From NCBI GenBank assembly GCA_019749945.1, contig JAIEPF010000024.1:14436-78435 (forward strand): a stretch of DNA of 64,000 nucleotides, read 5' to 3'. Shown one piece after another: positions 17,580 to 63,695 of this stretch. Within the stretch, counting starts at the first letter, position 1, and each line of letters begins with the position of its first letter. This DNA is from Burkholderiales bacterium (lineage in GTDB: Bacteria > Pseudomonadota > Gammaproteobacteria > Burkholderiales > SG8-41). The notes under the pieces were generated by a model. It worked only from the letters and a program-made list of their open reading frames with translations, ran no database searches and had not been told where the DNA came from. Both the position numbers and the translations under genes were made by a program.

Positions 17580-17601
17580 GGCAGCCCCCCCTGTTATCGG
17601 T

Positions 17602-18024: not shown

Positions 18025-18091
18025 TACGGCCCCCCCCCAGTGCGTGATGACGGGAACTAGCATAACAAACCCTGAACCGGGCCTGCCGCCC

Positions 18092-39908: not shown

Positions 39909-41036
39909 TTGAACCCGATTATCGTCGTCACGCTGCTGACCCTCGCCATGCAGGGCGGCCACATGGGCAGCCGCGTCGTGGCCTCCCTGCTCGCCCTGAA
40001 CCTGGGTGCCGGCCCGCTGCTGATCGGCGTCCTGATCGCCTCCTACTCGATATTCCAGCTGGGATTCGCGCTGATTGTCGGACGCATCTCCGATCGTCAC
40101 GGTTCACGCTGGCCGATGCTCGGCGGCACCATGGCGTTCGGCGCCGGGCTCATCATCCCTGCCGTGTGGCCGACATTGCCGGCGCTGTTCATCTCGGCAC
40201 CGCTGATCGGCGTCGGTTTCGTATTTTTCAACGTTGCCGTGCAAAGTCTGGCCGGCACCCTCGGCTCCGCAGCGGAACGCACTCGCAACTTTTCGACGCT
40301 GAGCCTGGGTTATTCCAGCGGCCACATGATCGGCCCGGTCATCGCCGGCGTGATGATCGATCGTTTTGGCTTCGGTTCCGCCTACATCGCCTTTGCCGTC
40401 CTCACGCTGTGTCCGATTCTCACTCTGGCATTGTCGCCGCGACTGGGTGCCAACGGCAACCGCAGCGAGCCGCAAAAGAGCAGCGCTTTCGAATTGATGC
40501 GCCTGCCTTCGCTGCGCCGGATGATCATTGTCAGCGGGCTGGTCACCACCGGCTGGGACCTCTACACGTTTTATGTGCCGATTTACGGCCATTCCATCGG
40601 CCTTTCGGCATCCACCATCGGCGCCATCCTCGGCGCTTTCGCCGCAGCGAGTTTTATTGTCCGGGTGGCGCTGCCGATGCTGACGCGTCGCTACAGCGTG
40701 GAAAGCGTGCTCGCCGCGGCCATGGGCATCGCCGCACTGCTGTTCATCCCGTTCGCCTTCATTGAATATGTGCCGGTGCTGATGGCGCTGTCCTTCGGCA
40801 TCGGCCTGACCCTCGGCGTCAGCCAGCCGCTGACCCTGAATCTGACCTACAACCGCTCCCCTGCGGGGCGTTCCGGGGAGGTCACCGGCCTCCGGCTGAC
40901 CATCAACAACATCACCCATATCGGTGTGCCGCTGGCCGCCGGCTCGGTCGGCGCGTTGCTCGGCATTGCCCCGGTGTTCTGGGCCAGCGCCGCAATCCTG
41001 CTGGTCAGCGGCTGGATGTCCCGCAACGACAAATAA
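39909..41036 (+). CDS. MFS transporter
   Basis: 375 aa (TTG start). GRISDRHGSR loop motif and multiple TM helices. Confidence 0.85.
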   Translation: MNPIIVVTLLTLAMQGGHMGSRVVASLLALNLGAGPLLIGVLIASYSIFQLGFALIVGRISDRHGSRWPMLGGTMAFGAGLIIPAVWPTLPALFISAPLIGVGFVFFNVAVQSLAGTLGSAAERTRNFSTLSLGYSSGHMIGPVIAGVMIDRFGFGSAYIAFAVLTLCPILTLALSPRLGANGNRSEPQKSSAFELMRLPSLRRMIIVSGLVTTGWDLYTFYVPIYGHSIGLSASTIGAILGAFAAASFIVRVALPMLTRRYSVESVLAAAMGIAALLFIPFAFIEYVPVLMALSFGIGLTLGVSQPLTLNLTYNRSPAGRSGEVTGLRLTINNITHIGVPLAAGSVGALLGIAPVFWASAAILLVSGWMSRNDK

Positions 41037-49150: not shown

Positions 49151-49295
49151 GCCCTGCTCCACGAATTGAAATGAGTCGCGATTATCGCACCGCGGGCCGA
49201 CAGGGCCCATGGCAGTCCGAATACTGGTCACAGTGCAGTTCGGCCGGCAAAAATCAGGGTGTAAACTTTCGCCACACCCCGCTCCGGAGCGCCAC

Positions 49296-50117
49296 ATGGC
49301 CGCTACTGCATCCAAAATCATCAGCCTCGCCGAACTCGCGCAGCGCATCCCTGAAGGGGCGGCACTGGGCCTCGGTGGCGTGTTCCTGCATCGCGGACCA
49401 TTCGCACTGGTGCGCGAGCTGGTACGCCAGCAACGCAAGAACCTTGAAATCATCAAACCCTCGCCCGGTTACGACCTCGACCTCCTGTGCCGTGCCGGCG
49501 CCGTCGCCAAAGTGCGTGCCGGCATTGTCGCCATGGAAGGCAATTTCGGCATGGCGCGCTGGTACCGCAAAACCATCGAGCGCAAGGAAGCCCGTCTCGA
49601 AGAACACGCCTGAATGACCCTGGTCGCAGGGCTGCGTGCAGCCTCCTACGGAATCCCCTTCCAGCCGGTTGCCGGTGTACACGGCAGCGAACTCGCAGGC
49701 GTCAACAACTGGCAGACCCTGCGCGATCCGTACGGCTCCGGCAAGGATGTGTATGTCATTCCGGCAGTGCAGCCTGATATCGCAGTGATCCACGCCGCCG
49801 AGGTCGATACCGACGGCAATGCGCGCATTTACGGCTCGCCGTTCTGGGACCACCCGCTGACCCGCGCCGCTAAACGTGTGCTGGTCACTGCGGAAAAACT
49901 GGTGCCCACCGACCGGCTGCGCGAACAACCGGAACTGACCCTGGTGCCGGGCTTCATGGTCGAAGCCGTCGCCATCACGCCCAGGGGCGCATGGCCCGGC
50001 TCGATGCATCCCTATTACGACATCGATTATGCGGCGGTGGAATACTACATGCAGGATGCCGAGGGCGTGCTCGAAAACCATCTCGCCGCCGCGCCTGAAG
50101 CCGTCGCAGTCGGCTGA
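49296..50117 (+). pseudogene. CoA-transferase subunit A (glutaconate-CoA-transferase-like) interrupted by an in-frame TGA at 49611-49613
   Basis: Two track ORFs (…LEEHA* and MTLVAGLRAASYGIPFQPV…) are in the same frame and separated only by TGA. Together they form one gap-free 273-codon subunit-A-like sequence. Confidence 0.6.
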
Positions 50118-57136: not shown

Positions 57137-57287
57137 TTTGTTGTATCCGGCTATAGTAACTATAATGCCCCTGCACATGCAATGCCGGCACTTCGGGTAT
57201 GCAGCGCAGGAAACCGGCGGGGAGCGCAGTGTCGGGCCGCCGGCCGGCCCGCGGCAAAACTGTCCAATAAATCACGGTGTTAATGCC

Positions 57288-60200
57288 ATGCACCCGCAAA
57301 CTGTCTACGCCAAGACCTCCAAGGGCGTTCTTGATTTCAAGAACAAAACCATCAAGCTCGATCGCAATGCCGGCAATATTTTTCTTTCGGTGGATGGCAA
57401 ATCGACCTTTGCCGAACTGGTGGCGAAAAGCAAAATCGCCCCCAAGGATGTCGAAGGCATACTGGATGAACTGACCAAGGCGGGTTACGTCAAGGTTTTC
57501 TCGTCCCCGGCTGCTGCTCCTGCCGCAAAACCCGCCGCCCCGGCGACACCTGCAGGGCGCGCCGCCGCCCCGGCCGCACCGGCAGCCGATGACGGCGAGA
57601 TGGATCTCGACTTCACTTCCCCCGAGGCTGTAGCCAAGGTCAATGCCGAGGCAGAAGCCCGTAAAGAGAAGGAAGCGCAGGCCAAGGCCCGCGCGCAGGC
57701 CGCGGCCAAGGCCGCAATGGAGGCCAAAGCGCGGCAGCAGGCTGAAGCCCAGGCCCGCGCCGCCGCCGAAGCCCGCGCCAAAACGGAGGCGGAAGCCAAG
57801 GCCAAGGCTGACGCTGCCGCCCGAGCCGCCGCCGAAGCCCGTGCCAAGGCGGAAGCCGAGTCCAAAGTCGCGGCAGATGCGCAGGCGAAAGCCGCGGCGG
57901 AAATCCGCCTGAAGGCGGCGCAGGAAGCCTCCGCCAGGGCAGAGGCCGAAGCCCGTGCGAGAGCGCAGTCCGAAGCCCGCGCCAAGGCCGAGGCCATTGC
58001 CAAAGCCACCTCGGAAGCCAAGGCCCGCGTCGAAGCCGAAGCGCAGGCCAAGGCCGAAGTCGAAGCCAATGCCCACGCCGCCGCCGAAACCAAGGCGCGC
58101 GAAGCGCTGGAAGCACAGATGAAAGCGATGGCTGAAGCCCTCGCCCGTGCCCAGGATTCCGCGAAACGCGAGGCCGAAGCCCGCGTCCGCATGGAAGCCG
58201 ACATCAAGGCCCGCCTCGAAGCGGAGCGCAAGGCCCTGGAAGAAGCCGAAGCCCGCGCCAAAGCCGCCGAGGAAGCGGTGGCGCAGGCGCGCCAGATGGC
58301 GGAGGAAGCGGCGCGCGCCAAAGCGGCCGCCGAAGCACGGGCGGCAACGCAAGGTTCGGATCCCGAATCCATGGCCAGGGCCACAGCAGCGATGCAGGCG
58401 CTGGAAGAAGCCAAAGCCCGGGCGCGGGCGGAAGCCGAAGCCCGCGTCGCCGCCGAAGCCCGTGCCAAAGCCGAAGCCGAAGCCCGCGCACGCGAGGAAG
58501 AGCAGCGAAGAATCGCCGCCGAAGCCGAGCAAAAAGCGCGCGCTGAAATCGAGGCCAAGGCCAATGCCGAACTGAAAGCACTGCGCGAACAGGCACGGCA
58601 GGCCTCGGCTGAAGCGGAAACCCGCGCTGCGGAAGAAAAACGCGCCCGCGAAGAAATGGAAAACCGGATCGCCGCCGAGCGCCGCGCCCGCGAGGACGCC
58701 GAAGCCAAGGTTGCCGCAGAACGTGAACTGCGCGAAGAGGCCATCCGCAAAGTACAGGCCGAGGCCGAGGCCAAGGCCCGCGCTGAAGTCGAGGCGGTGA
58801 TGGAGGTCGAACGGCGCAAACGCGAGGAAGCCGAGAAAAAAGCCCAGGCCGAGATCGCCGCGCGCACGGTGGCCGAGCGCAAGGCGCGCGAGGAAGCCGA
58901 CCGTCAGCTCGAAATCGCCCATAAAGCGCGGGAGGATGCGGAACGGCTGGCCCGCAGCGCCGGGGCCGGCGAAAGCGCGGAAAGCAAAAAAGCACGGGAG
59001 GATGCGGAATATCGCGCCCAGATGGCCGAAGCCGCGGTGGCAAAAGCCAAGGCGCAGATGGAAGTCGAGCGCCAGGCCCGCGCCCAGGCTGAAGAACGCG
59101 CCAAGGCCGAGGCCGTGGCCCGCGTGGTGCGCGAACAGGAACTGCGCGAAAGCGCTGAAAAAAGCGTCAAGTCGCGGGTGGACGAAGAATTGCGTGCCCG
59201 CGCCCGCGCCGAAATTGAAGCCGACGCGCGTTACCGTGCCGAAGCCGAGGAACGCGCCAAGGCGGCCGCCGCCGACCGCAAGCTGCGCATGGAGTCCGAG
59301 GCGCGTGATGCCGCCTCGTCTTTCCGCTCCGACAAAAAACCGCGCAGCAAGCTGGTGATGGCCGGCATCGGCCTGTTGGTGCTGGTCGCCGGCGGGCTGG
59401 GCGCCCTCCAATTCATGCCGCTCGGCAGCCATGTGCCGGCAGTGCAGGAACTGGTGTCACAGCGGTTCAAGCAGCCGGTGCGCATCAGCAACATGCGCTA
59501 CACGGTTTATCCGGAACAGGTGCTCCGCCTCGAGCAGGTCAGCGTGGGCGGCACGCAGCAGATCAAGGCCGATACCGTCAGCATCCCGATGATGCCGTGG
59601 AGCCTGCTGCTCGGCGCGCGCGAGTTCGACATCATCGCCGCCAACGCCGTCACCATTGAACCCGCGGGCATCGACCTGCTGCCGGTTATGGCAAAAGGCG
59701 CCGAAGGCGCCGCGCTGCAGATCAGCCAGTTGCGCCTGACCAACGTCAAAATCAACGGTCTTGCCATCGATGTACCGCAATTCGAGGCCCTGATCAGCTT
59801 CAGCCGCAGCGGCGCCATGCAGAAAATGCGCCTGAGCGACGGCAAAATGACCGTCAATGCCACGCCGAAGGACAACGGGCTTGCGCTGGCCATCTCGGCC
59901 AGCGAATGGCAGTTGCCGGTGGGACCGGCGCTGAACTTCAGCGACCTTTCAGTCACCGCGCAGGTGGATCAGCGGCAGGCGACGGTGAGCGCGTTCGAAG
60001 GCCGCGTCGGCGGCGGTCGCGTCAAGGGCGCGCTGAAAGCGGCATGGGCCGGCGTCATCAGTGTCGAAGGCGAATTCAATCTTGAAAACGGCCGGCTGCA
60101 GGAACTGATGCCCGCCTACACCCGCGATTTTTCAGCCAACGGCTCGATCAGTGCGAACGGCAGTTATGCGCTGCAGGGGAAAACCCTGAAAACGCTGTTC

Positions 60201-60542
60201 GATGCCAGCGCCGCGGAAGCTTCGTTCACCATCAGCACCGGTGAACTGATGAATATCGACGTGGTGCGTGCGATCCAGGCGCCTTCAGCCAGCGGTACCC
60301 GTGGCGGCAAAACCCGGTTTGACACGCTGAGCGGCGCGCTCAGCATCAGCGGCGGCCGCTACAACTACAAACAGCTGCAACTGAATTCCGGCCCGCTCAA
60401 TGCCAGCGGCGCGATTGCCGTCGGTGACGGCGGAGCGCTTTCGGGCCGCATCAATGCGGAACTCGGCTCCAAGGGCCTGGTGGTGGCCCGCGGCGGCCTG
60501 TCGGTTGCCGGCGCGGTCCGCGATCCGCTGCTGCGGCCCTGA
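57288..60542 (+). CDS. large membrane-anchored protein: N-terminal ~70-aa module, Ala/Pro linker, ~570-aa A/E/R/K-rich coiled coil, one TM helix, C-terminal AsmA-like domain
   Basis: 1084 aa from ATG 57288. The repeat region runs about 57615-59330 (AEARAKAEAE...). The TM helix LVMAGIGLLVLVAGGLGALQF lies at about 59350-59415. The C-terminal G-rich beta-type domain resembles AsmA-family tails (tentative). Confidence 0.8.
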   Translation: MHPQTVYAKTSKGVLDFKNKTIKLDRNAGNIFLSVDGKSTFAELVAKSKIAPKDVEGILDELTKAGYVKVFSSPAAAPAAKPAAPATPAGRAAAPAAPAADDGEMDLDFTSPEAVAKVNAEAEARKEKEAQAKARAQAAAKAAMEAKARQQAEAQARAAAEARAKTEAEAKAKADAAARAAAEARAKAEAESKVAADAQAKAAAEIRLKAAQEASARAEAEARARAQSEARAKAEAIAKATSEAKARVEAEAQAKAEVEANAHAAAETKAREALEAQMKAMAEALARAQDSAKREAEARVRMEADIKARLEAERKALEEAEARAKAAEEAVAQARQMAEEAARAKAAAEARAATQGSDPESMARATAAMQALEEAKARARAEAEARVAAEARAKAEAEARAREEEQRRIAAEAEQKARAEIEAKANAELKALREQARQASAEAETRAAEEKRAREEMENRIAAERRAREDAEAKVAAERELREEAIRKVQAEAEAKARAEVEAVMEVERRKREEAEKKAQAEIAARTVAERKAREEADRQLEIAHKAREDAERLARSAGAGESAESKKAREDAEYRAQMAEAAVAKAKAQMEVERQARAQAEERAKAEAVARVVREQELRESAEKSVKSRVDEELRARARAEIEADARYRAEAEERAKAAAADRKLRMESEARDAASSFRSDKKPRSKLVMAGIGLLVLVAGGLGALQFMPLGSHVPAVQELVSQRFKQPVRISNMRYTVYPEQVLRLEQVSVGGTQQIKADTVSIPMMPWSLLLGAREFDIIAANAVTIEPAGIDLLPVMAKGAEGAALQISQLRLTNVKINGLAIDVPQFEALISFSRSGAMQKMRLSDGKMTVNATPKDNGLALAISASEWQLPVGPALNFSDLSVTAQVDQRQATVSAFEGRVGGGRVKGALKAAWAGVISVEGEFNLENGRLQELMPAYTRDFSANGSISANGSYALQGKTLKTLFDASAAEASFTISTGELMNIDVVRAIQAPSASGTRGGKTRFDTLSGALSISGGRYNYKQLQLNSGPLNASGAIAVGDGGALSGRINAELGSKGLVVARGGLSVAGAVRDPLLRP

Positions 60543-61598: not shown

Positions 61599-61638
61599 GT
61601 ATTAATTATAAGTAATTGTTTTTATTCATATTTTTATG
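61599..61638 (-). repeat. AT-rich dispersed element, copy E7
   Basis: gtattaattataagtaattgtttttattcatatttttatg (5 G/C in 40 nt). Its rc matches E1 at 34/40. Overlaps the stop of the dtd remnant and lies about 84 nt upstream of the htpX ATG. Confidence 0.8.
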
Positions 61639-61893
61639 GCTGCCAGCGCCTCAACAAACGCCGCGATGCCGCCTCCGCCACCGGCGCGCAACTGCAGCCA
61701 GAATGTCACAGGGCCGTCATTGGTCAGCGTGACCTGCATGTCCGCGCCGAAACGGGCCCGCAGCCACCTGCGCATGGACACGCCGCGCCTGGACCACGAC
61801 ATGCTCAAACAGCTTCCGGCCCGGCTCCGGTGGCGCCCACGTTTACGCCTTCAATCACGACCTGCGCCAGGCTGACCCGTTGCAGCAGGGCGA
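61626..61893 (-). pseudogene. dtd: D-aminoacyl-tRNA deacylase (dtd) remnant with an internal deletion and frameshifts
   Basis: Three frames carry Dtd pieces. They are [26 protein letters not shown] (N-terminus), [19 protein letters not shown], and [22 protein letters not shown] (C-terminal signature). Only about 270 bp are present, whereas about 450 bp are expected. Confidence 0.7.
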
Positions 61894-62917: not shown

Positions 62918-63695
62918 ATGACCGATAACAACACTTACCGCACCACCGCCAAGGGTCGCGCCGAAGTTGCAGCGAAACCGGGTGTGCTGAAACCGGGTAT
63001 CAAGGGACTGCTGGCCGCGGTCGGTGAGCGGGCCACGGCGAAAAATCTGCGTGACCGGTTTCCGCGTGCCGGCGACATCGGCGCGGCGCTCGAGGCGCTG
63101 ACGAACGAGGGTTATATCGAAATCGCGCCGGCAACGGCTCCGCAATCCAAATCCACGGTCGACGACCTGGAGAGTTTTCTCAGCGAACGCCCGAAAGAGC
63201 CGACGCTGCAGCAGCGCCGCCAGGCCGAGGGTACGATTTCCGGCGCGCGCAAACTGAAAGCCGGTTACCAGATCAATATCCTAAACCGCCCGGGCAAACC
63301 GATCCCGCCGCGCGGCGGCGGCAAACATGCCATTCTGCTTATCGACAGCCACGAAGCGGAAGCGCTGGCCGCCGCACGCGGGCTGATGCAGGGCGGATTC
63401 GACATCCGCGGCGCAGCCAGCCGCAGCGAAATCGCCGCCGCTCTGGCCAAGCCCCCCCCTGCCCGACCTGATCATCATCGATGTCGAACTGCGCGATGCC
63501 GTCGGTCTGGATGTGCTCGGCAAACTGCATGAACACCCGGAATTCAAATCGACGCCGATCATCGTCGTGACTGCCCGCGCCGAACGCGACGACATCGTCG
63601 CGGCACTGGCCTACGGCGCTTCGGGTTACCTCAACAAACCCGTCAAGCCGGATGTCCTGCTGCGCCATGCCAAAGACGCGCTCGGCCTGCCCTGA
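62918..63695 (+). pseudogene. response regulator (N-terminal ~70-aa module + receiver domain) frameshifted at a C8 tract
   Basis: Frame 1 gives ...KHAILLIDSHEAEALAAARGLMQGGFDIRGAASRSEIAAALAKPP. Frame +1 continues LPDLIIIDVELRDAVGLDVLGKLHEHPEFKSTPIIVVTARAERDDIVAALAYGASGYLNKPV. The total length of 778 nt equals 3n+1. Confidence 0.75.
63452..63459. repeat. poly-C homopolymer (C8) at the frameshift site
   Basis: The block gcccccccct was counted directly. Deleting one C restores a single 258-aa ORF. Confidence 0.9.

Follow-up and report, generated by a model that had tools for sequence, protein, structure and literature searches.

A single extra cytosine in a newly formed poly-C tract splits, and probably inactivates, a response-regulator gene of an uncultured Burkholderiales bacterium

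When a response-regulator gene is divided exactly at a run of eight cytosines, does the run serve as a reversible genetic switch, does it mark a plain loss of function, or does the extra base exist only in the assembled sequence? This question is raised by a locus in an uncultured Burkholderiales bacterium that lies near the end of a 64,000 nt stretch of DNA (termed the window; G000:C25:14436-78435). The window comes from a 3.59 Mb assembly of 40 contigs with 62% GC and 95.8% completeness. An earlier inspection of the letters (the sequence-only reading) had proposed a candidate phase-variable switch and had named a fixed pseudogene and a sequencing error as alternatives. We favor a recent, near-fixed loss-of-function allele that arose by slippage from C7 to C8 in a newly formed tract, and we assign this explanation a probability of roughly 0.7. 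The features of the locus, in window coordinates, are as follows.

62918..63695, + strand: whole response-regulator gene, 258 codons at C7, interrupted here by a +1 frameshift (11 same-genus orthologues, Pfam, simulation)
62918..63532, + strand: ORF as encoded, 204 aa (exact product on 5 Logan contigs; no Pfam family)
63452..63459, + strand: C8 homopolymer, the site of a single-base insertion (probable ancestral state of the clade C7, AAG CCC CCC CTG = K-P-P-L)
63459..63695, + strand: remainder of the receiver in the +1 frame, 78 codons plus stop (residues 100% identical to the intact sister protein)
63480..63482, + strand: GAT codon of the predicted phospho-acceptor Asp188 (IIIDV), in the wrong frame (8 codons past the last in-frame Pro codon)
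63513..63695, + strand: 60 aa GTG-started ORF, the gene callers' substitute for the C-terminal half (8 Logan contigs)

Exactly eight C residues occupy the tract (window positions 63446-63467 read gcc aag CCCCCCCC tg ccc gac), and the sequence then continues TG CCC GAC CTG ATC ATC ATC GAT. The 258-codon gene is thus split 8 codons ahead of its phospho-acceptor Asp. Specifically, the ORF that begins with the ATG at 62918 crosses the tract and stops at the TGA at 63530-63532. Its 204 aa product comprises residues 1-180 of the regulator followed by a 24 aa out-of-frame tail that ends in AKPPPARPDHHRCRTARCRRSGCARQTA, and it is without D188, T218 and K240. The remainder of the protein is encoded in the +1 frame up to the TGA at 63693-63695 (LPDLIIIDVELRDAVGLDVLGKLHEHPEFKSTPIIVVTARAERDD...NKPVKPD...), and the longer start of this same frame reads LPDLIIIDVELRDAVGLDVLGKLHEHPEFKSTPIIVVTARAERDDIVAALAYGASGYLNKPVKPD. 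The peptide that spans the C8 junction in the full-length, frame-corrected product is KPPLPDLIIIDVELR.

When the tract length was varied in a simulation, a single ORF was obtained with C7 (258 aa) or C10 (259 aa), and truncation resulted from C5, C6, C8, C9 and C11. Tract length therefore determines the reading frame, and the frame switch maps exactly onto the tract. This coincidence is exact and not due to chance. A sister lineage with identical flanks differs here only by one C fewer. The sequence-only reading had reported a response-regulator gene divided exactly at C8 whose frame would be restored by C7 or C10, and this description proved accurate in all its details.

The domain content of the gene becomes apparent only when the two pieces are joined. 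The read-through product matches Response_reg (PF00072) from position 1 to 109 with a score of 68.8 bits against a cut-off of 30.2, and the REC domain corresponds to residues 139-250, preceded by an N-terminal module of about 135 aa. In contrast, no Pfam family is hit by the 204 aa piece, and the hit of the downstream piece to Response_reg covers positions 43-109 of 111 (59.8 bits). The receiver domain is therefore not carried by one uninterrupted frame but is split after profile position ~42. The key residues of a receiver are all found in the read-through product (D143 in LLIDS, D188 in IIIDV, T218 in VVTA and K240 in NKP), as had been noticed from the sequence alone, and PDLIIIDVEL pairs with PDLILTDINM in an alignment to a CheY-like chain. 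The intact protein of the sister lineage (P0125) aligns to the receivers of CheY, PleD, PhoB and NarL, all generic receiver matches, and no NCBIfam model reaches its cut-off for this protein. No Pfam family was found over the N-terminal 138 residues. The N-terminal module is winged-helix-like, and the gene encodes a stand-alone response regulator composed of this winged-helix-like module and a REC domain.

Compared by eye, residues 1 to ~70 of the regulator (62918-63130) resemble the N-terminus of an AsmA-like protein of 1134 aa with coiled coil that is encoded 2.4 kb upstream (57138-60542, + strand). The shared pattern is Y-x-T-x-K-G ... LL-x-V-x-G ... L-x-x-L-x-x-x-G-Y-I.

The regulator is a common gene of the genus, and homologues carry the database label 'MAG: response regulator [Burkholderiales bacterium]'. 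It is present in 23 of 24 same-genus genomes searched, and all 11 same-genus orthologues fetched encode it in a single frame of 256-261 aa. Among the best 120 of 172 homologue clusters, the truncated product belongs to this genome only, those listed at close to full length read as one intact frame, and gene callers report the 60 aa ORF only in sequences that carry the frameshift. The gene forms its own transcription unit between a DUF3025 gene, from which it diverges, and a patatin gene, with which it converges, and the frameshift is therefore without polar effect on other genes. A scan for promoters and terminators around the gene yielded nothing informative. We also considered whether a paralogue compensates for the broken copy and rejected this idea, as the other matches in the genome are generic REC domains with 28-37% identity.

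Homopolymers are a classic site of indel miscalls, and the organism might truly carry C7 and an intact gene, with the extra C contributed by sequencing or assembly. To this point we examined Logan contigs, which are run-by-run assemblies produced by a different assembler from that of the window. The 60 aa ORF and the exact 204 aa product occur on the eight and five such contigs listed above, and all contigs fetched (L013-L015 and L019-L024) agree with the window at 100.000% identity across 1.0-3.2 kb. The C8 tract is present in 8 of 8 separately assembled runs (SRR15085116, 118, 119, 121, 122, 126, 128 and one more), although these may be replicates of one sample, and, given that assemblers drop minority variants, they would not reveal cells with C7 or C10 at a level of a few percent. 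Contigs that agree this cleanly imply that the reads are accurate and that the population is essentially clonal across the runs. We found no paper describing these sequencing runs; a clonal population in SRR15085116-128 may stem from a reactor, an enrichment or repeated sampling of one site.

Homopolymers across the genome were also examined for signs of systematic error. Frame switches occur at 55 of 3551 homopolymers of at least 6 nt (1.5%) and at 71 of 5000 random positions (1.4%). These figures come from a census that combines GC3 phase with an open-frame filter; at 62% GC it is noisy and missed this very gene on the + strand, and its value is limited to comparing the rate with that of random positions and to supplying a shortlist. 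The genome has 144 runs of at least 8 nt, and a recognizable gene is broken at only two of them (this regulator and a formate/nitrite transporter gene, FNT), as judged from peptides read by eye, an approach that together with the GC3-phase filter may miss some broken genes. Intact genes carry 8 nt runs in frame, including a C8 in infB (G000:C38:237470-237477), a T8 in aroA and an A8 in a Ser/Thr kinase gene, and runs of eight C, G or T within essential genes (infB, aroA) stay in frame. A systematic homopolymer error is not evident.

The FNT gene (G000:C23:39949-40614, - strand) is split at a T8 of its coding strand (run 39968-39975), and T9 would restore ANMFFFPLALLLK (...GFEHSVANMFFFPLALLLK...). 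Its truncated product of 221 aa is found on 5 Logan contigs, and an intact relative has 276 aa. The window also contains a lesion of another kind. Adjacent to the regulator gene, at 61616-61893 (- strand), lies a remnant of dtd (D-aminoacyl-tRNA deacylase) whose N-terminal, middle and C-terminal segments are in three frames. Relative to the intact 149 aa gene of the sister lineage, it has an internal deletion of ~220 nt and a 1 nt indel. This decayed pseudogene is contained in the independently assembled Logan contig L013, and a search of the genome (95.8% complete) for PF02580 gave no further match.

A miscalled base could still be argued from the second gene broken at a homopolymer, and from the chance that all of the assemblies depend on the reads of one platform. 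Nevertheless, C8 recurs in eight runs assembled singly, on contigs without a single mismatch for as much as 3.2 kb, homopolymers show no surplus of frame switches relative to random positions, the C7 of the sister lineage is cleanly called in three runs, and the dtd deletion on the same contig is genuine decay at a non-homopolymer site. We therefore consider an artefactual C highly improbable, and the sequencing error that the sequence-only reading had held out as an alternative no longer has much to recommend it.

A further gene in the window was examined as possible evidence of decay. A gene resembling CoA-transferase subunit A (49209-50117, + strand) encodes 134 aa up to a TGA at 49611-49613, which is followed by an ATG-started 167 aa piece in the same frame. 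A relative has this piece as a protein of its own (NCBI, JGI and ENA records; contig of up to 385 kb), which weakens the in-frame TGA as a proof of decay. Instead of a fresh nonsense mutation, the split may be a natural arrangement or one shared with the relative.

How a tract of this kind came to lie in the gene can be read from the genus. In all 11 relatives the corresponding residues are K-(Q/T/A/F/K/P)-P-L-P, encoded by mixed codons that form no homopolymer, and the other lineages with KPP use AAG CCG CCG CTG. Only the sister lineage reads AAG CCC CCC CTG, an uninterrupted C7 in an intact gene (P0125; 95% amino acid and 91.9% nucleotide identity; runs SRR15164348-50). The phylogenetic tree groups this lineage with the sister with a support of 1.0. 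These data suggest that the mutable C7 tract arose in the common ancestor of the two lineages and that one C was gained in the lineage studied here. A difference of C7 versus C8 between sister lineages is what slipped-strand mutation would be expected to leave.

The part of the gene that has been thrown out of frame shows little sign of age. Downstream of the tract, outgroup-polarized comparison assigns 3 synonymous and 0 non-synonymous changes to this branch, and no stop codons are present. The 78 downstream residues are identical to those of the sister, with pairwise dN/dS values there of 0.006/0.234. Upstream of the tract, we observe ordinary purifying selection and nothing more. The frameshift is the sole lesion, so that the gene does not have the multiple defects of a decayed pseudogene. 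The absence of non-synonymous changes and of stops downstream indicates that the frameshift is probably recent, and in all likelihood very recent relative to the ~8% divergence from the sister. Similarly, because no further lesions are found, the loss is likely to be very young. The gene thus appears to be a null allele or a very young pseudogene, unlike the adjacent dtd.

The comparison of sister strains suggested by the sequence-only reading gave a single difference, at 91.9% nucleotide identity, with C7 and an intact gene in the sister and C8 and a broken gene here; no closer strains turned up in exact-flank scans of JGI metagenome contigs and GTDB genomes. Its picture of a plain pseudogene, with uniform C8 and additional disabling mutations, was borne out in its first half at the level of assemblies and not in its second.

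The explanation that we favor can be laid out as a series of steps. The homopolymer would have formed in the common ancestor, and a slipped-strand insertion in this lineage would have extended it from C7 to C8. This would have shifted the frame of a single-copy, stand-alone response regulator 8 codons before its phospho-acceptor Asp. The resulting 204 aa product could not be phosphorylated, and its receiver most likely cannot fold, which would make the allele effectively null. As the consensus form in at least eight runs, the C8 allele is presumably at or near fixation in an essentially clonal population, and its origin would be one among several gene inactivations in the genome. Because C8 can slip to C7 or C10, reversion is chemically possible. 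However, with MutS and MutL intact, it would be expected to proceed at the ordinary mutation rates of homopolymers, and therefore slowly, rather than as an evolved switch.

Full-length regulator might still be made from the C8 gene by +1 slippage of tRNA-Pro on CCC-C or by slippage during transcription, which would leave the gene functional or turned down in output. Where CCC codons are followed by a further C, tRNA-Pro can shift by +1 and still pair perfectly. The shift required here is indeed +1, and the downstream frame is undecayed. A programmed site, however, would be expected to be conserved, and the two-frame layout is found in 0 of 11 orthologues and in 0 of the best 120 of 172 homologue clusters. 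Furthermore, no stimulator is apparent: the run is followed in the 0 frame by CCU GCC CGA, none of which is a stop codon, and nothing resembling a Shine-Dalgarno sequence is located upstream. Programmed +1 frameshifting of the prfB type likewise relies on a +1 shift to give the full-length protein, but the site examined here is unconserved in homologues and has neither an in-frame stop nor an internal Shine-Dalgarno stimulator. In cells that have EF-P and m1G37, spontaneous +1 slippage at such sites is on the order of one percent or lower. Slippage at this level would be a leak and not a mechanism, and recoding is accordingly a very improbable way for this gene to have kept its function.

The truncation itself might instead have been selected, if the 204 aa product acts as a constitutive or dominant-negative N-terminal module that is free of phospho-control. 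Its N-terminal 138 residues are intact, including the conserved linker, and every run has the allele as its consensus. But half of a receiver (beta1-alpha2) that ends in 24 nonsense residues would probably not fold, no such form occurs in other lineages among the best 120 of 172 homologue clusters, and the upstream part is under ordinary purifying selection only. A new function for the truncated protein thus strikes us as very doubtful.

The remaining alternative is that the poly-C run is a true contingency locus, in which selection maintains a reversible switch between ON (C7/C10) and OFF (C8) and both types of cell coexist. The frame is set by tract length, the two sister lineages are one C apart with one ON and the other OFF, and tracts of 6-7 C in signalling or metabolic genes (bvgS, glpK) provide precedents. 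The undecayed downstream half, with its 0 non-synonymous changes, fits a selected switch and a very recent loss equally well. Against these points stands the uniform C8 consensus of the eight runs. In addition, a public collection of ~15 billion proteins contains no product of a C4, C5, C6, C7, C9, C10 or C11 allele, and exact-flank pattern scans for C6-C11 alleles found none in JGI metagenome contigs or GTDB genomes.

The history of the tract also speaks against a dedicated switch. Only this lineage and its sister have the uninterrupted run, relatives have interrupted codons, and the tract is not maintained evolutionarily. Long G/C tracts are not over-represented in the genome; rather, G/C runs of at least 8 nt are ~10-fold rarer than base composition predicts (29 observed versus ~400 expected) and are mostly non-coding or in frame. 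The neighboring gene and others are plain pseudogenes. Mismatch repair appears to be in place, with both MutS (874 aa frame) and MutL (632 aa frame) intact, in contrast to Mycobacterium tuberculosis. The same observation led us to reject the hypothesis that a mutator state caused by loss of mismatch repair explains the homopolymer indels. On balance, a selected contingency locus is unlikely. Of the switch proposed by the sequence-only reading, what survives is that tract length sets the frame and varies between sisters; its dedicated, reversible nature finds no backing in a tract of one length in eight runs that is unmaintained, in a genome depleted of G/C runs and with intact mismatch repair. 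Somewhat less probable still is a working reversible C7/C8 switch of an orphan winged-helix and receiver regulator in a free-living, uncultured Burkholderiales bacterium. If true, it would represent bet-hedging on a signalling protein in the manner of bvgS and glpK outside pathogens, with a switch born de novo by two synonymous CCG-to-CCC changes.

The distribution of run lengths in this genome has a distinctive shape. G/C runs of 5-9 nt number 2280, 322, 63, 27 and 2, with a shoulder at 8 followed by a cliff, and A/T runs of 7-10 nt number 732, 109, 5 and 1, with an abrupt drop past 8. Selection against longer runs, or an effect of the assembler, could produce this cliff. One of the two longest G/C runs of the genome, a G9 at 18030-18038 (coding minus strand), is located in the window together with a G7 at 17585-17591. 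Each is positioned 5 nt upstream of an ATG, in front of an NfeD-like gene and a stomatin/SPFH-like gene of one operon, and they look like poly-G elements of the Shine-Dalgarno type rather than coding tracts.

One close precedent among known systems is bvgS of Bordetella pertussis, where a poly-C tract of C6 is found in the virulent and C7 in the avirulent state (Stibitz et al., 1989, as cited in PMC1891110), and where mixed C6/C7 populations and reversible switching are seen in cultures (PMC1891110). Both loci are short coding poly-C tracts (6-8 bases) in a two-component signalling gene of a GC-rich betaproteobacterium of the order Burkholderiales, and in both an extra C truncates the protein, abolishing signalling in bvgS. 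However, bvgS encodes a sensor kinase rather than an orphan response regulator, its reversible mixtures contrast with the exclusive C8 of the eight runs at assembly level, and its host is cultured, whereas the organism described here is known from sequencing-run assemblies alone. The glpK gene of M. tuberculosis has the same 7C/8C/10C arithmetic as the regulator, being intact with 7C, frameshifted with 8C and restored by reversion to 7C or 10C (bioRxiv 10.1101/717272). M. tuberculosis is without mismatch repair, glpK reverts at ~1e-2 and variants are found within single colonies (bioRxiv 10.1101/717272). In contrast to this metabolic enzyme of a repair-lacking organism, the tract examined here lies in a regulator gene alongside intact MutS and MutL.

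A further counterpart is found in the same genome. The break in FNT is likewise a single-base indel in an 8 nt run, with no other lesion, present in several independent run assemblies and set in a genome with other decayed genes such as dtd. There is no substantive difference between the two cases, and the regulator break is classed with ordinary young homopolymer-indel pseudogenes.

For annotation, these results mean that two called CDSs (204 aa plus a piece of 60 or 78 aa) represent one response-regulator gene, probably inactivated by a single extra C, and that the break reflects the organism and not the assembler. The event is of an ordinary kind and affects an uncharacterised regulator. 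It adds to the evidence of gene loss in a clonal population, in which the only copy of dtd found is a decayed remnant. If the reads were to hold mixed tract lengths, the locus would become an instance of contingency regulation in an environmental bacterium. As it stands, the locus offers a small, clean example of how a mutable tract may be born, wherein synonymous CCG-to-CCC changes create a C7 run that subsequently slips.
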